From a virus (Duplodnaviria > Heunggongvirae > Uroviricota > Caudoviricetes): a DNA stretch of 40,006 bases. The notes beneath the pieces are model-generated. The model saw nothing but the letters and a program-made list of their open reading frames with translations, made no database searches and had not been told where the DNA came from. The number at the start of each line of letters is the position of its first letter. Within the stretch, counting starts at the first letter, position 1. The translations under genes and the position numbers were made by a program. Location: positions 1 through 40,006 of IMG/VR virus record IMGVR_UViG_2568526473_000002; one strand, written 5' to 3'. Below are positions 1 to 33,650 of this stretch, one piece after another.

Positions 1-1164
1 TTACGCCTTCTTTATATCCTCCATAATTCCAGAGTGGGACATATTTGGGACATTATCACCAAAAATGTCGTCTATTTTCCTCGCGTGCTCTGTCAAATGA
101 TTAGGCGCAAGGTGAGCATATCTACGAACCATTTCTATGGACTCCCATCCGCCCATTTCCTGAAGCACTGATAATGGGACGCCTGACTGAATCAGCCAGC
201 TTGCCCAGGTGTGTCTGAGGTCATGGAAACGGAAATCTTCAATTCCTGCACGACGACAAGCTGATAGCCATGATGTTTTGCTGTCGATGCGCATCTTCCT
301 GACCGCAGGCGTTGATGTTCCATCTGCTCGCTTAGCCGCCTTGGTATGTACAAACACCCATTTGTGATGCTTGCCTATTTGATCACGCAACACTTTACAG
401 GCGGTATCGTTCAGCGCCACACCAATAGCGCGGTTTGATTTGCTCTCTTCTGGATTCACCCAGGCAACTCGTCGCTGCATGTCGATTTGTTGCCATTCCA
501 GATTTATGATGTTCGACTTTCTCAGACCAGTTGCCAGCGCAAACTTGACGACAGATTTCAGTGGTTCGGGGCACTCATCAATAAGGCGTTTTGCTTCCTC
601 CTTTTCCAGCCATCTGACTCGCTTGTTTCTGACCGCTGGTATCTTGATGACAGGCGCTTTTTCCAGCCACTTCCAGTCGCGTTCTGCAGCACGGAGAATG
701 GCCTTTATCATGGCAAGATGCTTTGCCTTGGTCTGAGTTGATACTGGCTTTGGTTCATAAACAGGTGGTTCTTTACCTTTCCTTATGGCGGCCTGAACTT
801 TCTGTTTCCATATTTCTTTCGTCTTTCTGTTATGCATTCTGCTTACAGCAGAGTAAATCTTTGCCTCCGAGATATCTTTAAGCCTTATACCCTCAAAATG
901 TTCAAGCCAGAACTCAATCCGGCTTTTATCTGAATCGAGAGATTTTTTATCAGCTTTTTCCTCAAGCCATCTTAGGCAGGCCTCTTCAAAAGTGACATCA
1001 GGTAAATCCCCTAGCTTTTCTACTCGCCAGAGTTCTGCTTTTCGCTTGTCGTGCAACTCCTGAGCTTGCCGCTTGTCCTTTGTGCCAAGAGATTCCTTAA
1101 TTCGTTTCCCGCCCGGGAGCGAATACGAGGCATACCATATTTCATTTCTGCGGAAGAGTGACAT
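1..1164 (-). CDS. int: Tyrosine site-specific integrase (DLP12 IntD-like)
   Basis: 387-aa ORF; C-terminal catalytic signature [10 protein letters not shown] and MVRRYAHL (HxxR and Tyr nucleophile); first gene of the prophage. Confidence 0.93.
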
Positions 1165-1907: not shown

Positions 1908-2005
1908 CTTTCATTAATCCCTGAATTGTTGGTTAATACGCTTGAGGGTAAATGCGAATAATAAAAAAGGAGCCTGTAGCTCCCTGATGATTTTGCTTTT
2001 CATGT

Positions 2006-2489: not shown

Positions 2490-2650
2490 ACCGCCTCCCG
2501 TTTATTATTTATCTTCTCAGCCAGCCGCTGTGCTTTCAGTGGATTTCTGATAACAGAAAGGCCGGGAAATACCCAGCCTCGCTTTGTAACGGAGTAGACG
2601 AAAGTGATCGCGCCTACGCGGATATTATCGTGAGGATGCGTCATCGCCAT
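2462..2650 (-). CDS. Small hypothetical protein (62 aa, lambda orf60a position)
   Basis: Short ORF abutting the exo start; position only. Confidence 0.3.
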
Positions 2651-3321
2651 TGCTCCCCAAATACAAAACCAATTTCAGCCAGTGCCTCGTCCATTTTTTC
2701 GATGAACTCCGGCACCATCTCGTCAAAACTCGCCATGTACTTTTCATTCCGCTCAATCACGACATAATGCAGGCCTTCACGCTTCATGCGCGGGTCATAG
2801 TTGGCAAAGTACCAGGCATCTTTTCGCGTCACCCACATGCTGTACTGCACCTGGGCCATGTAAGCCGATTTTATTGCCTCGAAACCACCGAGCCGGAACT
2901 TCATGAAATCCCGGGAGGTAAACGGGCATTTCAGTTCAAGGCCGTTGCCGTCACTGCATAAACCATCGGGAGAGCAGGCGGTGCGCATACTTTCGTCGCG
3001 ATAGATGATCGGGGATTCAGTAACATTCACGCCGGAAGTGAATTCAAACAGGGTTCTGGCGTCATTCTCGTACTGTTTTCCCCAGGCCAGCGCCTTAGCA
3101 TTAACTTCCGGAGCCACACCGGTGCAAACCTCAGCCAGCAGGGTGTGGAAGTAGGACATTTTCATGTCAGGCCACTTCTTTCCTGAGCGGAGCTTTGCTA
3201 TCACGTTGTGAACTTCTGAAGCGGTGATGACGCCGAGCCGTAATTTGTGCCATGCATCATCCCCCTGTTCGACAGCTCTCACGTCGATCCCGGTACGCTG
3301 CAGGATAATGTCCGGTGTCAT
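2641..3321 (-). CDS. exo: Lambda exonuclease (Red-alpha), 226 aa
   Basis: Near-identical over full length to lambda Exo as recalled ([43 protein letters not shown]...). Confidence 0.95.
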
Positions 3322-4103
3322 GCTGCCACCTTCTGCTCAGTGGCTTTCTGTTTCAGGAATCCAAGAACTTTCACTGCTTCGTCCTGTGTCAGTTCTGACG
3401 ATGCGCGAATGTCGCGGCGAAATATCTGGGAACAGAGCGGCAATAAGTCGTCATCCCATGTTTTATCCAGGGCGATCAGCAGAGTGTTAATCTCCTGCAT
3501 GGTTTCATCGTTAACCGGAGTGATGTCGCGTTCTGGCTGACGTTCTGCAGTGTATGCGGTATTTTCGACAATGCGCTCGGCTTCATCCTTGTCATAGATA
3601 CCAGCAAATCCGAAGGCCAGACGGGCACACTGAATCATGGCTTTATGCCGCAACATTCGTTTGGGATGCGACTGCCACGGTCCGGTGATTTCTCTGCCTT
3701 CGCGGGTTTTGAATGGTTCGCGGCGGCATTCATCCATCCATTCGGTAACGCAGATCGGATGATTACGGTCCTTGCGGTAAATCCGGCATGTACAGGATTC
3801 ATTGTCCTGCTCAAAGTCCATGCCATCAAACTGCTGGTTTTCATTGATGATGCGGGACCAGCCATCAACGCCCACCACCGGAACGATGCCGTTCTGCTTA
3901 TCAGGGAAGGCGTAAATTTCTTTCGTCCACGGATTAAGGCCGTATTGGTTGGCGACGATCAGCAATGCGATGAACTGCGCATCGCTGGCATCGCCTTTAA
4001 ATGCTGTCTGGCGAAGAGTGGTGATCAGTTCCTGTGGGTCGACAGAATCCATGCCGACACGTTCAGCCAGCTTCCCTGCCAGCGTTGCGAGTGCTGTACT
4101 CAT
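3318..4103 (-). CDS. bet: Lambda Bet (Red-beta) single-strand annealing protein, 261 aa
   Basis: Near-identical to lambda Bet as recalled ([66 protein letters not shown]...). Confidence 0.95.
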
Positions 4104-4108
4104 CCGTT

Positions 4109-4405
4109 TTATACCTCTGAATCAATATCAACCTGGTGGTGAGCAATGATTTCAACCATGTACCGGATGTGTTCTGCCATGCGCTCCTGAAACTCAACAT
4201 TGTCATCAAACGCACGGGTAATGGCTTTTTTGCTGGCCCCGTGGCGTTGCAAATGATCGATGCATAGCGATTCAAACAGGTGCTGGGGCAGGCCTTTTTC
4301 CATGTCGTCTGCCAGTTCTGCCTCTTTCTCTTCACGGGCGATCTGCTGGTAGTGACGCGCCCAGCTCTGAGCCTCAAGACGATCCTGAATGTAATAAGCG
4401 TTCAT
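4109..4405 (-). CDS. gam: Gam (RecBCD inhibitor), short 98-aa form
   Basis: Matches the C-terminal 98 aa of lambda Gam ([21 protein letters not shown]...[10 protein letters not shown]); the upstream in-frame extension diverges from lambda. Confidence 0.88.
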
Positions 4406-4481
4406 GGCTGAACTCCTGAAAATGGCTGTGAAAATATCGCCCGCGAAATGCCAGGCTGATTAGGAAAACAGGAAAGGGGGG

Positions 4482-4772
4482 TTAGTGATTCAGGCCGTTA
4501 CCGCGTCCGTCGAGAAAAACTTCTACGAGCAAATCACGGGTATAAGTGCACTCGATGCCGCGATGCAGATAAAGCCGTCCGCGTAAATTAGCTGATGCAG
4601 TCCAGGTACCATCTTTGTGTTTGACCAGCATTCCTGGCATGACCGCGCCGCGATTAACGGTCTGCGTTCCGTAATGTTGATGAACCATAAAAACTCCTGC
4701 CCGTAAGCTGGGCTGCTGAACATATAGAGACTTCTGCGCGTATTCAGGCGGTGGATGGCCGCCGGTTGTCAT
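4482..4772 (-). CDS. Hypothetical protein (96 aa) in the N position downstream of PL
   Basis: Only sizeable ORF between OL and gam on the leftward strand; no arginine-rich N-like motif, no recognised domain. Confidence 0.3.
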   Translation of the reverse strand: MTTGGHPPPEYAQKSLYVQQPSLRAGVFMVHQHYGTQTVNRGAVMPGMLVKHKDGTWTASANLRGRLYLHRGIECTYTRDLLVEVFLDGRGNGLNH

Positions 4773-4975
4773 AACTAAGCCGCCTCGTTGAAGCGACTAA
4801 GGTATGAAATGTTGAGTTAATTTCAGCTGGTCACACCGACGTTCACGCGTCCGTTTCACCCCTCGCACTCCCCGAAGCCTGCTGAAATTCAAACTGCGGA
4901 TCTAAGCGGTCATCGCAACGGTGAAGCGGGTGAACTGGTGGTTGCCCCATCGCTGTGTCGTTGCGATGGAATGAT

Positions 4976-5053
4976 AATAGCTATTGCTATTGGGTATATC
5001 AATACGTATTGTTATTGCTTGATGCGATTGGTTATTAAATCATTGATAGCAAA
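4976..5053. promoter_or_regulatory. Putative OL/PL operator-promoter cluster
   Basis: Repeated TTGCTAT/ATAGCAA-containing motifs (tagctattgctattggg, attgttattgctt, tgatagcaaa) mirroring the cI-cro intergenic operators; located where lambda has OL. Confidence 0.45.
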
Positions 5054-5140
5054 AAGAATTTATTTTGTGGTTTGCATCGCGTAGCGATAGCTGAAGTGAG
5101 ATTGTGGTTGTTTTTTAGACGTTGAGTGTGTTGGGGAAGG

Positions 5141-5170
5141 GGGGAAGAAAACCCGGCGCGGTGGCCGGGT
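5141..5170 (-). terminator. Rho-independent terminator ending the cI operon
   Basis: 7-bp GC stem acccggc/gccgggt (5151-5157 / 5164-5170) with 6-nt loop, followed on the minus strand by a U-rich tract (complement of ggggaagaaaa); abuts the stop of ORF 5170..5562. Confidence 0.55.
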
Positions 5171-5562
5171 TATGGTTTTTTCATGTATAAATTTACGAGC
5201 AAAGTTATGACTGGCATTGCAACGGATAAGAGAAGAATTCCGAGCATCCAAGCCTTTAAATTACCTGTTTTTACTTCGACAAAATCCTTACTTGCTTTAT
5301 GAGATAACTTTTCGTCAATATCTACAAGTTTTTGAAGTATCGTAGAAACATCAGTTTTTATAGAAGAGGTAATTTTTGTCAGCTCTCTCACATCCGCGCG
5401 AGTTTCCGCTAAGTTTATCTTGATGTTTTCAACGTCGGCTTCAAGTTTTGCAACTCTGACCTCGAGCATGCCATTCCCTCCACCATCACTACCACCGTTT
5501 TTATGGTTATTTCTATCATCCCCCTCAGGGAAAAGAGGTGCAATATTATCAAAAGGATTCAT
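5170..5562 (-). CDS. Coiled-coil protein with single C-terminal transmembrane helix (130 aa); RexB-position gene
   Basis: Hydrophobic C-terminus AWMLGILLLSVAMPVITLLVNLY; heptad-like central region; AT-rich codon usage; last gene of the cI operon. Confidence 0.6.
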   Translation of the reverse strand: MNPFDNIAPLFPEGDDRNNHKNGGSDGGGNGMLEVRVAKLEADVENIKINLAETRADVRELTKITSSIKTDVSTILQKLVDIDEKLSHKASKDFVEVKTGNLKAWMLGILLLSVAMPVITLLVNLYMKKP

Positions 5563-5582
5563 TTATTCTGGCCCGGATGTCA

Positions 5583-5981
5583 TTATTGGTCAACTTCGTT
5601 ATTCTTTAGCCAGTAGAAAACAAGCCATGCCAAATAACTTGTAACGAATCCGCAATGTTTGCATATCACTCTAAACTCATAATCCATTAAGTTTTCTTTT
5701 GTCATATTCCATTGCTCATTACTATGTGGAGCATCAACCTTGTAAAGCCTTAAAACAGTATATTTTTCAATATTATTAAGATCTGTTTTCCCTTCCTTGC
5801 TGTTGAATTTATCCCAATGCCAGTCTTGCACTGCTATAAGTTCAGCCTTACCGCAAGATAAGCAGTTATGATTTGCCCCAACATGCTTTAAATATGCAGA
5901 AAATTGAGCGGTTGTAATATTTTTCACTTTATTATGAAAATCAGATACTTCATCACTTACAGATTTGTCATCATTACTCAT
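5583..5981 (-). CDS. Zinc-ribbon protein with two CxxC pairs (132 aa); RexA-position gene
   Basis: CLSCGK and CKHCGF motifs; 20-nt gap to the downstream gene and 75-nt gap after cI, consistent with an operon; AT-rich. Confidence 0.6.
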   Translation of the reverse strand: MSNDDKSVSDEVSDFHNKVKNITTAQFSAYLKHVGANHNCLSCGKAELIAVQDWHWDKFNSKEGKTDLNNIEKYTVLRLYKVDAPHSNEQWNMTKENLMDYEFRVICKHCGFVTSYLAWLVFYWLKNNEVDQ

Positions 5982-6056: not shown

Positions 6057-6749
6057 TTATCCATGCTTCCTGTACGTCTGCGGCATGCTCCCGATGACTT
6101 TCCCGAAGATGAACACTCGGTTCATCTCGTCTTTCTCGATCGGGTCCCACGGTGAGTAGCTCTTGTTATCAGAGATAACCAGCAGCTTATCCTTCATCAT
6201 TTGCAGACGTTTTACATGAGCGGTTTCGTCGTAGAGGAACGCATAAATCCCATCGCCGTCGAACGATTTGACGCTGATATCGACGAACAGCAGGTCACCT
6301 GGTTCGATCGTTCCTGACATGCTGTCGCCACGCACGTTAATGATGCGGATGTTTTCTGCTTTGCGGCCATCAAACATGTGACGCGCATCATCATGGGAGT
6401 ACTCAACCGATCGCAAAACTTCAACGAACTCACGGTTAATGACGCCTGGCCCTGCACTTACTTCCATATCAAGAACGTCAATCTTGAAGTATTTGGAAGA
6501 GCAGGTCGCCGGTTTTCCTGGCTGAACGCCATTATCCCTCATAGGGCCTATGCCTGAGGAAAGCCATTCAGTGCGAACCCCAAGTGCATTAGCGATTTCG
6601 ACAATTCTTGTAGATCCGCGTGCATTGCCGCTTGTCAGTCTCCAGATTGTGGGTTGAGCTACACCAGACGCCTTTGCAAGAGCGCCTTGAGACATTCCAG
6701 ATTGTTCCATCGCTAGGTTTAAGCGATCAGCAAGAGTTTCTTTTTTCAT
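6057..6749 (-). CDS. cI: CI-type prophage repressor (HTH plus LexA-like S24 autopeptidase domain)
   Basis: N-terminal HTH (MSQGALAKASGVAQPTIWRL); C-terminal GDSMSG Ser nucleophile and VKRL Lys of the S24 family; start taken at ATG 6749 (MKKETL), not the TTG at 6785. Confidence 0.88.
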   Translation of the reverse strand: MKKETLADRLNLAMEQSGMSQGALAKASGVAQPTIWRLTSGNARGSTRIVEIANALGVRTEWLSSGIGPMRDNGVQPGKPATCSSKYFKIDVLDMEVSAGPGVINREFVEVLRSVEYSHDDARHMFDGRKAENIRIINVRGDSMSGTIEPGDLLFVDISVKSFDGDGIYAFLYDETAHVKRLQMMKDKLLVISDNKSYSPWDPIEKDEMNRVFIFGKVIGSMPQTYRKHG

Positions 6750-6789
6750 AAGTTTTAATTTATACGCTTGCGTATCGATGGTCAAAACA

Positions 6790-6850: not shown

Positions 6851-6859
6851 GAATTGATA

Positions 6860-7087
6860 ATGACAAATCAAACCATTCAACTCGCAATCAGTATTACAGG
6901 TAGTCAAAAACGACTGGCAGATCTATGCGGTGTAGCCCAACCCACTGTTTGGCGTTGGCTACACGGTGGCGGAATTGATGCCCGCTATGTAATGAAAATT
7001 GTCTCAGCCACTGGTGGAAAGATTAAACCAGCAGATATTCGTCCCGACCTCGCACCATTGTTTAACGCGAGTAATTCTGCCGCCTAA
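6860..7087 (+). CDS. cro: Cro-like HTH regulator
   Basis: Small HTH protein (LADLCGVAQPTVWRWL) divergent from cI; start taken at ATG 6860. Confidence 0.7.
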   Translation: MTNQTIQLAISITGSQKRLADLCGVAQPTVWRWLHGGGIDARYVMKIVSATGGKIKPADIRPDLAPLFNASNSAA

Positions 7088-7111: not shown

Positions 7112-7657
7112 ATGACTATGCAACCACTTACATACCAACAGACTAGCGGATTTAGCCCGACTGCGGTGATAAATCGTTCTCAAACAAAACAAGCTCCAGG
7201 CCACGAAAAAATCCGTGATGCCGTCCGCGCCTGGTCGGCTGCAGATAATCAGGATGTTGTTGCCGCACTCATTGTGAATGAGTATCGGGAGCAGGGCGGC
7301 GGCACCATCGATTTCCCTGATGATGTCAGCCGTGCACGCCAGAAGCTGTTCCGCTTCCTCGATAACAAATTCGATTCTGAAAAATACCGAAATAACGTGC
7401 GTGAACTGACCCCGGCAATTCTGGCGGTACTACCGCTGGAATATCGCGGTTACCTGGTTGAGCAGGATAGCTTTATGGCTAGGTTGGCTGAAATGGAAAA
7501 GGAACTCAGTGAGGCAAAACAGGCTGTCATTCTCAACGCACCACGCCACCAGAAACTTAAGGAAATTAGTGAAGGTATTGTGTCGATGTTTCGTGTGGAC
7601 CCGGATCTGGCTGGTCCACTGATGGCGATGGTCACCACCATGCTGGGGGCAATATGA
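7112..7657 (+). CDS. cII-position regulatory protein, possibly YdaT-like (181 aa)
   Basis: Occupies the cII slot between cro and O; larger than canonical cII; family assignment is tentative. Confidence 0.45.
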   Translation: MTMQPLTYQQTSGFSPTAVINRSQTKQAPGHEKIRDAVRAWSAADNQDVVAALIVNEYREQGGGTIDFPDDVSRARQKLFRFLDNKFDSEKYRNNVRELTPAILAVLPLEYRGYLVEQDSFMARLAEMEKELSEAKQAVILNAPRHQKLKEISEGIVSMFRVDPDLAGPLMAMVTTMLGAI

Positions 7658-31245: not shown

Positions 31246-32574
31246 ATGACGTGGAAAGACAGACTTCAGGACGCGTCATTTCGCGGTGTGCCGTTTAAGG
31301 TTGAAGAAGAAAGTGCGGGAACCGGTCGTCGTGTGGAAACGCACGAATACCCGAACCGCGACAAACCCTATACCGAAGACCTGGGGAAAATTACTTTCCG
31401 CCCGTCCATCACAGCTTATGTGGTGGGAGATGACTGCTTTGACCAGCGCGATCGCCTGATTGACGCGCTGAATAAACCCGGTTCCGGCACGCTTGTCCAT
31501 CCGACTTACGGTGAGCTGAAAGTCTGTGTTGACGGAGAGGTTCGGGTCAGCACATCGAAGAGTGAAGGGCGTATTGTCCGCTTTGACCTGAAGTTTGTCG
31601 AAGCGGGAGAACTCTCTTACCCCACTTCAGGTGCGGCGACGGCGCAGACGCTGATGTCATCCTGTTCTGCACTGGATGACTGCATCAGTGACAGCTTCAG
31701 TGGTTTCAGTATCGATGGCGTGGCAGATTTTGTGCAGAACGACGTCGTCGGTAATGCCAGCACAATGCTTAGGTATGTTTCTGATGCGATGAAAGTGGTG
31801 GATTCTGCCGTATCGGATGCCGCCAGGCTGTTGCAGGGGGATATCTCGGTACTTCTGCCGCCGCCATCGTCAGGCAAAAATTTCGTTGAGCAGGTGCAGA
31901 AAATGTGGCGTACCGGGAAACGCCTTTATGGTAACGCCAGCGACCTGGTCACCATGATCAAAACGCTTTCCGGTGTCAGCCTCGGCAGCGATCTGCAACC
32001 GCGCGGCGTCTGGAAAACGGACAGTAAAACCACCGCCACGGCGACGCAGCAGCGTAACGTGGTTGCCAGCACCCTTCGTACGACCGCAATCAGCGAAGCG
32101 GCGTATGCCGTCACCCGATTGCCTGCGCCAACAACTTCCGCGGTGATGCAGAATGCCGCAGTGGGGCAGGCAACAACACCCGCGCAGAGCACTGGCTGGC
32201 CTTCCGTCACGCATCCGGCACTGAACAATGCACCGGCGGTGAAAAGCACGGTTGACCTGCCGACGTGGGAAGAACTGACTGACATTCGCGACACACTGAA
32301 TACGGCAATTGATAAGGAGTTGTCCCGAACAACCAGTGATGCGCTGTTTCTGGCGCTGCGCCGGGTGAAAGCAGATCTGAATGCGGATATCAACACGCGC
32401 CTTGAACAGTCTGCACGGATCATTCAGCGCACGCCGGATGAGGTTTTACCCGCGCTGGTGCTGGCGGCGACCTGGTTTGATAACGCGGCGCGTGACGCGG
32501 ACATTATCCGGCGTAATGCCATTACGCATCCCGGCTTTGTGCCGGTGATCCCTCTGAAGGTGCCAGTGCAATGA
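31246..32574 (+). CDS. DNA circularization protein (Mu gpN-like)
   Basis: Position after the tape measure; start at ATG 31246 with GGAG RBS. Confidence 0.65.
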   Translation: MTWKDRLQDASFRGVPFKVEEESAGTGRRVETHEYPNRDKPYTEDLGKITFRPSITAYVVGDDCFDQRDRLIDALNKPGSGTLVHPTYGELKVCVDGEVRVSTSKSEGRIVRFDLKFVEAGELSYPTSGAATAQTLMSSCSALDDCISDSFSGFSIDGVADFVQNDVVGNASTMLRYVSDAMKVVDSAVSDAARLLQGDISVLLPPPSSGKNFVEQVQKMWRTGKRLYGNASDLVTMIKTLSGVSLGSDLQPRGVWKTDSKTTATATQQRNVVASTLRTTAISEAAYAVTRLPAPTTSAVMQNAAVGQATTPAQSTGWPSVTHPALNNAPAVKSTVDLPTWEELTDIRDTLNTAIDKELSRTTSDALFLALRRVKADLNADINTRLEQSARIIQRTPDEVLPALVLAATWFDNAARDADIIRRNAITHPGFVPVIPLKVPVQ

Positions 32575-33650
32575 ACGATAACGTCACGCTACGGGTAAAT
32601 GGCCGGGAGTGGAATGGCTGGACATCGGTGCGCATCGGTGCCGGTGTTGAACGACTGGCGCGGGATTTCAGTGTGGAGATCACCCGCCAGTGGCCGGGAG
32701 ATGAGGGTATTACCATGCTTCAGTCGCGCATTAAAAACGGTTCAAAAGTGGAGGTGCTGATTGGTGATGAGCTGGTGATCACCGGCTGGGTGGAGGCGAC
32801 GCCCGTTCGTTACGATGCCCGTTCGGTCAGCACCGGTATTGCCGGACGTAGTCTGACCGCTGACCTGATTGACTGTGCAGCCGAACCGACACAGTTTAAC
32901 GGACGATCGCTGGTACAGATTGCGCAGGCGCTTGCTGCGCCTTTCGGCATTGAGGTGGTGAACAGCGGTGCGCCGTCGGGTGTTATTCCTGATGTCCAGC
33001 CTGATCACGGTGAAACGGTGATTGAGGTGATCAACAAAATACTCGGTCAGCAGCAGGCGCTGGCTTACGACGACCCGCACGGCAGGCTGGTGATTGGTGG
33101 TATTGGCTCAACGCGGGCACATACCGCGCTGGTACTTGGGGAAAACATCCTTTCCTGCGATACGGAGAAGAGTATCCGGGAGCGGTTTTCTGTTTACCAG
33201 GTGGCGGGGCAGCGTGCCGGAAACGACGATGATTTCGGTGAGGCCACCACCACCGCGCTGCGGGCCCGCACAGAGGACGCATTTATTGCCCGTTACCGTC
33301 CGATGTATATCAGGCAGACAGGGCAGGCTACGGGGGCAGGCTGTATTGCGCGTGCTGACTTTGAAGCCCGGCAACGGGCGGCGCGGACGGATGAAACCAC
33401 CTATGTGGTGCAGGGCTGGCGACAGGGTAACGGTACGCTGTGGCAACCCAACCAGCGGGTGATTGTCTTTGATCCGGTCTGTGGTTTTGACAATACCGAA
33501 CTGCTTGTTTCGGAAGTCACGTTTACTCAGGACCAGAACGGCACCCTGACGGAAATCCGTGTCGGCCCGCCTGATGCTTATCTGCCTGAACCTGAAGACC
33601 CCGGCGCGCGGAAAAAGAAAAAAGCCAGAGTACAGGAGGACCCGTTCTGA
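32571..33650 (+). CDS. Baseplate hub protein (Mu gpP-like / late control D family)
   Basis: 359 aa, position in the Mu-like baseplate block. Confidence 0.7.
   Translation: MNDNVTLRVNGREWNGWTSVRIGAGVERLARDFSVEITRQWPGDEGITMLQSRIKNGSKVEVLIGDELVITGWVEATPVRYDARSVSTGIAGRSLTADLIDCAAEPTQFNGRSLVQIAQALAAPFGIEVVNSGAPSGVIPDVQPDHGETVIEVINKILGQQQALAYDDPHGRLVIGGIGSTRAHTALVLGENILSCDTEKSIRERFSVYQVAGQRAGNDDDFGEATTTALRARTEDAFIARYRPMYIRQTGQATGAGCIARADFEARQRAARTDETTYVVQGWRQGNGTLWQPNQRVIVFDPVCGFDNTELLVSEVTFTQDQNGTLTEIRVGPPDAYLPEPEDPGARKKKKARVQEDPF

Follow-up and report, generated by a model that had tools for sequence, protein, structure and literature searches.

The early leftward leader of a lambdoid prophage without recognisable N, nut or put elements: a predicted 5′-terminal stem-loop, a covarying hairpin and a KilR-type kil gene

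Introduction

Early gene expression in lambdoid phages is regulated, in the textbook account, by the N protein acting with nut sites or, rarely, by put RNA, which works in cis on downstream terminators and depends on the beta′ zinc-binding domain. In phage lambda, N is required to pass intrinsic terminators of the kind found upstream of xis and int. A stem located at or within 1-2 nt of the 5′ end of a message is a further known feature, which blocks 5′-end-dependent decay. The subject of this analysis is the leader of the early leftward promoter PL, and the open reading frame (ORF) that follows it, at positions 4406-4975 of a 40,006-nt stretch of Caudoviricetes DNA (IMG/VR record IMGVR_UViG_2568526473_000002, positions 1 to 40,006), here termed the window. 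The window is a lambdoid prophage whose closest sequenced phages are the Bievrevirus members 4A7 and Perceval and the PhiR series, with 88-92% identity over 4406-5160. A literature search found nothing relevant on Bievrevirus, the phi80 nutL or N-less lambdoid phages.

A preliminary description of the region had noted a 10-bp inverted repeat in the leader, proposed it as a nut-like or put-like RNA element or a protein-binding site, and reported neither an N antiterminator nor a kil equivalent. The most solid observations to emerge since are the identification of the ORF as kil, the presence of a hairpin (hairpin III) and a proline-rich ORF directly before it, and the absence of a T-run terminator from all loci that carry the leader of the window. 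The reading favoured here, in which our confidence is no more than even, is that the region would be the ordinary structured 5′ untranslated region of a lambdoid lineage that has neither N nor put and lacks a promoter-proximal terminator. This leader type, without N/nut, put and such a terminator, is the commonest form found in this analysis. The comparison also defines two elements across N-type, put-type and N-less left operons, namely a covarying hairpin and an ORF beginning MTTGGHPPP that precedes the toxic kil gene.

The kil gene and the conserved elements upstream of it

The promoter-distal part of the region contains the following features.

4482 to 4688, minus strand: kil, KilR-type FtsZ/cell-division inhibitor of 68 aa; ATG at 4688, AGGAG at 4694-4698, 5 nt upstream
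4689 to 4772, minus strand: upstream ORF MTTGGHPPP..., with a GGCGG/CCGCC hairpin at 4747-4763
4775 to 4801, minus strand: hairpin III, with a 9-bp core, a 3-nt loop and an invariant GAG on the 3′ side

Both gam (4109-4405) and a 96-aa ORF (4482-4772) are present as first described, but the ORF, then regarded as unrecognised, is Kil. It matches the profile of PHROG 294 ('Kil protein for bacterial septation inhibition') with an E-value of 7.6e-38, residues 20-96 aligning with positions 4-80 of the 83 in the profile. Its homologues carry the precomputed Pfam assignment PF27398; a local Pfam scan gave no match for Kil. The 68-aa core aligns with NCBIfam NF008465 ('FtsZ inhibitor protein') over residues 1-68 (E 1.1e-16) at 60.5 bits, below the curated cut-off of 92. 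Kil homologues of other lineages all begin with M(V/I)HQHYGTQTV and are preceded by unrelated sequence, and RefSeq annotates the 68-aa form in Escherichia coli LR-50. ATG 4688 is thus the start of the conserved protein. In the lineage of the window the first 28 codons of the 96-aa ORF constitute a separate upstream ORF, and the longer frame is apparent because this ORF runs in frame into kil. The first nine codons of the upstream ORF (MTTGGHPPP) are conserved; its tail ranges from 10 to 110 aa, with a stop at codon 11 in some relatives.

Hairpin III ends 5 nt before the AUG of the upstream ORF and shares homology with part of the tL1 region of phi80. More broadly, window positions 4747-4809 are homologous to the sequence right after the phi80 intrinsic terminator tL1A, and to the corresponding position in HK639, HK225, KO-TP1 and CobraSix. 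Across 207 loci containing ATGACAACCGGCGGCCATCCACCG, the hairpin occurs with at least seven different stem sequences. A covariation test on 38 distinct sequences with 500 shuffles found 87.5% of cells paired (73.5% in shuffles), two-sided changes in 7 of 11 pairs, and 50 cells altered on both sides, where the shuffles gave 19.3 ± 3.0. None of the 500 shuffles matched the observed percentage paired, number of two-sided cells or covariation score, and slid controls were far lower. Hairpin III is therefore a real conserved RNA structure. Together with the MTTGGHPPP ORF it recurs in left operons of the N type (phi80), the put type (HK639, CobraSix) and the N-less type, in every case ahead of a KilR-type kil; the two elements match no Rfam family and are not annotated in the phage records examined. 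The proline-rich upstream ORF leads into kil and probably gates expression of the toxic gene.

Absence of known antitermination elements and of the proximal terminator

The 207 loci were grouped by upstream type into 122 with the leader of the window, 24 with put, 25 with a phi80-type boxA and 36 whose upstream sequence is of another kind or too short. Five or more consecutive T directly upstream of hairpin III served as the marker of a tL1A-type terminator. This marker is found in 22/24 put loci, 24/25 boxA loci and 30/36 of the remaining group, together 76 of 85 loci, and in none of the 122 loci with the leader of the window. The antiterminator and the promoter-proximal terminator occur together, and the lineage of the window has neither; it seems to have lost early antitermination and the proximal terminator together.

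That the region encodes no recognisable N was borne out by PHROG and Pfam scans of the early ORFs, which found no N homologue, and by tblastn with five proteins (N of lambda, P22, phi21 and phi80, and HK022 Nun), for which the best E-value was 0.55. The proposal of a nut-like element did not hold. On the minus strand between 4690 and 4970 there is no boxA (CGCTCTTA / TGCTCTTTA), allowing one mismatch to CGCTCTTA, two to YGCTCTTTA or three to the 13-nt rrn form, and no boxB-like hairpin with a GNRNA pentaloop. Nor are the two elements found downstream of cro: the only pentaloop hairpin on the PR side has an AU-rich 4-bp stem and lies within the cII-like gene, and because the gap between cro and this gene is 24 nt there is no room for nutR or tR1.

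The put-like alternative fared no better. A covariance model (R1) of the conserved two-stem put element, built from eight put RNAs (HK022 putL and putR, HK639, CobraSix, UPF_BP1, phiEt88, S9-5 and PdC23) and run with filters off found nothing at 4689-4968, and blastn was negative. The best match of the model in the window, at 13.8 bits, lies at 32903-32954 among the tail genes and lacks the put core. A resemblance detected by eye between GAAACGGACGCG...CGUCGG and the put sequence GAACGGCGCG...GCGUCGG is faint and not significant. Searches of 4300-5300 on both strands returned no Rfam match up to E = 1. The RfaH ops element GGCGGTAGnnTG is not found on the minus strand of 4689-4968 with up to two mismatches, its count across the window is at chance level, and blastn detects no second copy of the leader in the window, including near PR.

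The predicted 5′-terminal stem-loop of the leader

The promoter-proximal part of the leader contains three features.

4974 to 5002, minus strand: PL promoter, sigma-70-type, −35 TTGATA (5002-4997), 17-nt spacer, −10 TATTAT (4979-4974)
4911 to 4968, minus strand: 5′-terminal stem-loop (Domain I), with the 10-bp repeat as basal stem and a 38-nt interior containing two short helices
4871 to 4900, minus strand: local hairpin H2, UCCG.AGUUUG / CAGGCU.CGGG, with an 8-nt loop

PL lies where OL/PL had been placed, is a good promoter of its type, with 10 of 12 positions matching the consensus, and predicts a transcription start at about A4967. The inverted repeat was confirmed as exact, catcgcaacg (4911-4920) and cgttgcgatg (4959-4968) being perfect complements 38 nt apart. 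Given the predicted start, its 5′ arm would therefore form the very beginning of the PL transcript, with the first 9-10 transcribed bases pairing with +48 to +57. Folding predicts one extended hairpin for the first 58 nt (−23.2 kcal/mol, z −4.77, 0 of 200 shuffles). Stabilising 5′-terminal stem-loops have a helix within about 2 nt of the 5′ end; here the stem is predicted to begin at 4968/4967, at the inferred start. What is notable about the repeat is this position at +1 and the stability of the fold (z −4.8).

Polymorphism was followed in 121-131 related loci from IMG/VR and GenBank phages, and a second scan of viral contigs with a different anchor returned a nearly identical set of loci. 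Four promoter/operator types precede the leader, and in each the sequence shared among relatives starts no more than about 2 nt from the predicted +1, with AU(C/U)GCA pairing with UGCGAU 40-50 nt downstream. The common polymorphisms in predicted stems, C/U opposite G and A/G opposite U, all keep pairing, which lends the structure weak support. The form of the window, with an identical 5′ hairpin in the LR-50 prophage, and an independent variant (L094) carry different 8-nt insertions, each of which extends the hairpin; the L094 hairpin has a predicted stability of −21.1 kcal/mol and a z of −4.4.

Downstream of Domain I, a U.G pair of H2 becomes C-G through U4893C in 49 of 75 unique sequences, and the hairpin is retained in the LR-50 type through a change from G-C to G.U. 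A 12-nt long-range repeat (4819-4830 / 4878-4889) was considered as a second domain and rejected; its pairing is lost in the LR-50 type, and the local hairpin is favoured by the alifold consensus.

In the favoured reading these elements would make up a 5′ untranslated region of roughly 280 nt for the early leftward operon of PL. The repeat itself is most likely an ordinary 5′-terminal stem-loop of the PL mRNA, closing a 58-nt structure whose most probable, and generic, role would be to guard a long message from 5′-end-dependent decay (RppH/RNase E). It may also sequester moderately C-rich untranslated RNA. Behind it would come the local hairpin, a CG-rich mini-hairpin that mimics an arginine-rich motif when read in frame, hairpin III, the proline-rich upstream ORF and kil. 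The leader (4773-4968) is present in 2222 of 5426 complete E. coli genomes, 2045 of which cover at least 80% of it. Isolated phages, among them 4A7, Perceval and the PhiR series, carry it too; because it is so common and occurs in isolated phages, the N-less design evidently works.

Several observations weigh against this reading of the stem-loop. Only a minority of the collected unique leader sequences have the perfect 10-bp form; the majority variant has a 9-bp basal stem, an A/C-rich interior shorter by 8 nt and a weak predicted fold (−9 to −11 kcal/mol, z about −2), and the O157:H7 type keeps just the 6 bp of AUUGCA/UGCGAU, with z about 0. Five perfect 10-bp inverted repeats with arms up to 70 nt apart occur in the 40-kb window, one of them an overlapping palindrome, so the bare repeat is statistically unexceptional. 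The collected relatives, which share at least 88% identity, show no two-sided compensatory changes in the 5′ stem. Outside E. coli phages no relatives of Domains I and II were found, and a cross-species search of genome contigs with a 15-nt pattern gave chance matches only. Conservation of the leader is no higher than that of the neighbouring genes. The same observations lead to the strongest alternative, in which the repeat has no independent function and arose by chance or hitch-hiking where recombination joined the immunity region to the conserved kil module. This we consider unlikely, though not negligibly so. A chance feature would not be expected to begin at the predicted +1 in four promoter types, to accumulate frequent polymorphisms that are all compatible with pairing, or to be extended by both independent 8-nt insertions, and the PL RNA of related phages also starts with a hairpin.

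The structured leader of the first description is thus upheld, and the assignment of that structure to the nut or put family is not. The suggested protein-binding site in DNA fits less well than RNA. Variants differ by 8 nt in the spacing of the arms (50 or 58 nt); a stem can accommodate this difference, but two half-sites aligned on the same face of the DNA helix could not.

Alternative roles for the leader

A second alternative treats the leader (Domain I with 4800-4910) as a new cis-acting processive antiterminator RNA, put-like in function and unrelated in sequence, that would carry PL transcription past distal terminators to xis and int without any phage protein. Two distal hairpins bear on this proposal.

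1967 to 1985, minus strand: strong intrinsic-terminator-like hairpin, 8-bp stem followed by TTTTTTATTATT; identical to lambda 30691-30669
2558 to 2580, minus strand: another terminator-like hairpin, lying within the orf60a homologue; same sequence as lambda at 31287

The first, possibly the rho-independent tL3 of lambda, follows orf61 and precedes xis and int, at a distance of about 2.9 kb downstream from the leader. Its retention in 67 of 71 loci with the leader of the window, which have no N, nut, put or ops, is the one positive argument for the proposal, and no minus-strand promoter is predicted between 1985 and int. The leader is also structured from +1, as putL is, and 4800-4910 occupies the place of phi80 nutL or HK639 putL. 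This hairpin is likewise a difficulty for the favoured reading, since an ordinary leader offers no account of xis/int expression beyond it after induction; the route by which these genes are expressed is the concrete question that the locus raises. An antiterminator is nevertheless quite improbable. The leader has no resemblance to put and no second copy in the window, covariation is absent from it, the long-range stem 4878-4889/4819-4830 is broken and uncompensated in the LR-50 type, and Domain I is down to 6 bp in the O157 type. The promoter-proximal terminator is missing in all 122 loci, as expected if no antiterminator were present. If the proposal were true, the PL leader of prophages in ~41% of complete E. 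coli genomes would represent a new class of antiterminator RNA.

Alternatively, the leader might act as a Rho-dependent attenuator or translation-coupled switch for kil and the red genes. Rho would load at its C-rich 5′ portion, which alternative 5′ pairings would mask or expose, and the polyproline upstream ORF would link stalled ribosomes to transcription. The C/G ratio of ~1.6 in the first 60 nt and the 32-nt A/C-rich loop exposed in the majority variant are consistent with such a site, although this modest bias falls short of that in classical Rho loading sites. The 5′ arm of the window has two mutually exclusive predicted pairings, a local 7-bp hairpin and the long-range 10-bp stem, and the upstream ORF has a conserved HPPP. 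The homologous phi80 block falls within the annotated tL1 region, which includes the rho-dependent tL1B, but tL1B itself is outside the part homologous to the window. Built from sequence and predicted folds, this switch appears very unlikely.

The last alternative arises from a frame in the middle of the leader.

4797 to 4892, minus strand: arginine-rich 31-codon frame MNFSRLRGVRGVKRTRERRCDQLKLTQHFIP, ending in a stop codon; in frame with kil; judged non-coding

The statement that the region holds no arginine-rich motif is correct for the 96-aa ORF and incorrect for this frame, which contains ...GVKRTRERRCDQLK... and is separated from the ORF by a single TAG (4797-4799). An N-like protein in a split frame or with a non-ATG start, which the preliminary description had named as evidence against its proposal, thus seems at first sight to be present, and the population data argue against it. 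TAG and CAG at 4797-4799 are both common among related loci (~45:55), and a 5-nt insertion shifts the frame in a few. Counting codon variants present in at least two unique sequences, the frame has 6 synonymous and 8 non-synonymous changes against 14 and 2 in the adjacent kil, and the LR-50 type alters the motif (R to C, Q to H, K to E and L to S). The arginine codons coincide with a CG-rich near-palindrome (4835-4854) predicted to fold as a small hairpin, 72 of 60,842 six-frame 7-aa windows are equally basic, and a protein search found the arginine-rich part in one called protein only (P0010). The frame is not a gene and is under no coding selection. For these reasons, and with no boxB-like target for it to bind, a minimal N-like antiterminator made as MKRTRERRCDQLK... 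from GUG 4859, or fused to Kil where TAG is CAG, is highly improbable despite the likeness of KRTRERR to the lambda N motif TRRRERR, a GGGGAG 8 nt upstream of the GUG, the replacement of that GUG by AUG in 7 unique relatives, and CAG in Perceval, which opens a single 136-aa frame into kil.

Prophage context

The leader lies in a left operon of lambdoid arrangement, next to an immunity region and a rightward early operon.

1 to 1164, minus strand: int
2641 to 3321, minus strand: exo
3318 to 4103, minus strand: bet
4109 to 4405, minus strand: gam
5150 to 5171, strand not given: GC-rich hairpin upstream of PL, closing the cI-cargo operon and separating PRM-driven transcription from PL
5170 to 5562 and 5583 to 5981, minus strand: two cargo genes in the rex position
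6057 to 6785, minus strand: cI-like repressor gene
6854 to 7087, plus strand: cro
7112 to 7657, plus strand: cII/YdaT-like gene

Positions 4406-4488 carry homology to lambda and Stx phages (98.8% identity, annotated as Kil there) that ends at the 3′ end of the KilR-type kil. Its end point marks the junction at which a KilR-type module stands in place of the lambda-type segment from kil and cIII to N and nutL. On the other side of the leader, the OL/PL region (4976-5053) contains the operator-like palindromes ATATCAATACGTA/TACGTATTGTTAT at 4996-5015, and CAATAGC...GCTATTG motifs overlap the −10 of PL. Phages that share the leader type of the window have at least four different operator/promoter versions.

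The two cargo genes between cI and PL (5170-5981, minus strand) belong to PHROG 3556 and 4293, match no Pfam or NCBIfam family and are of unknown function. The same site in relatives is occupied by HipA/HipD, GevT/GevA, a SIR2-family protein or an ASCH-domain protein.

On the plus strand the cII/YdaT-like gene is followed by O- and P-like genes, and from PR up to 12 kb no terminator is predicted on the plus strand. The P-like replication gene is followed by an inserted gene for an 1184-aa inverse-autotransporter (intimin/invasin-like) adhesin (9622-13176, plus strand), with Pfam matches to IAT_beta (E 4e-101), Big_1 and Invasin_D3. A perfect 13-bp palindrome (13185-13211) and an oppositely oriented BD-FAE/esterase gene (13213-14256, minus strand) come next. 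The insertion is cargo within the early rightward operon and may also interrupt PR transcription toward Q.

Comparison with known systems

The putL elements of HK022 and HK639 resemble the leader of the window in being structured RNAs of ~60-70 nt, located directly downstream of PL in lambdoid phages without N. They differ in their put core, GAACGGCGCG...GGCGGGTTCAGGATGAACGGCAAT, which is absent from the leader of the window, and the two share no match in sequence or structure. In addition, put-bearing relatives keep the terminator upstream of hairpin III that the lineage of the window lacks.

Relative to the N/nutL system of lambda, the leader occupies the same genome position. The PL leader of lambda before the first gene is roughly 220 nt, a length similar to that of the leader of the window, and the terminator-like hairpins of the red-xis-int module are identical to those of lambda. 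In contrast, the window lacks N, boxA and boxB, and its cro and cII-like gene are not separated by a nutR/tR1 region.

A further likeness is to phi80, together with KO-TP1, HK639 and HK225. The first ~20 transcribed bases, CCATCG[A/C]AACGA[A/C]ACA, are common to this group and the window, as is the block formed by hairpin III, ATGACAACCGGCGGCCATCCACCG and a KilR-type kil. In phi80 these two shared pieces are separated by annotated boxA and nutL core sites, a gene named N and the intrinsic terminator tL1A, a stretch replaced in the lineage of the window by ~160 nt found only in E. coli phages. The first ~20 nt of phi80, HK639 and KO-TP1 are predicted to fold into a local 5′ hairpin, with the antitermination elements further downstream: the annotated boxA and nutL core in phi80, unannotated equivalents in KO-TP1 and an annotated putL in HK639. 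Because these phages have separate nut or put elements downstream, the 5′ hairpin is regarded as distinct from antitermination; from these alignments and folds it appears to be a general feature of such PL transcripts.

The protein annotated as N in phi80 (98 aa; 3079-3375 of locus L005) has no arginine-rich N-terminus, and KO-TP1 has an unrelated small gene at the same position (2620-2817 of locus L014). Both phages conserve a leader of ~400 nt with a boxA and a boxB-like hairpin. The phi80 annotation may be positional only.

KilR of the Rac prophage is the closest described counterpart of the kil product, the 68-aa core matching PHROG 294 and NF008465 over its full length; the sub-threshold score marks it as a relative rather than the same protein, and the upstream ORF in frame with kil is a further difference. 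At the opposite end of the leader, the predicted stem-loop resembles those that stabilise E. coli mRNAs, such as that of the ompA 5′ untranslated region, in having a stem that would start no more than 1-2 nt from the predicted 5′ end, and it is distinguished from them by a much longer-range stem that encloses a 38-nt interior.

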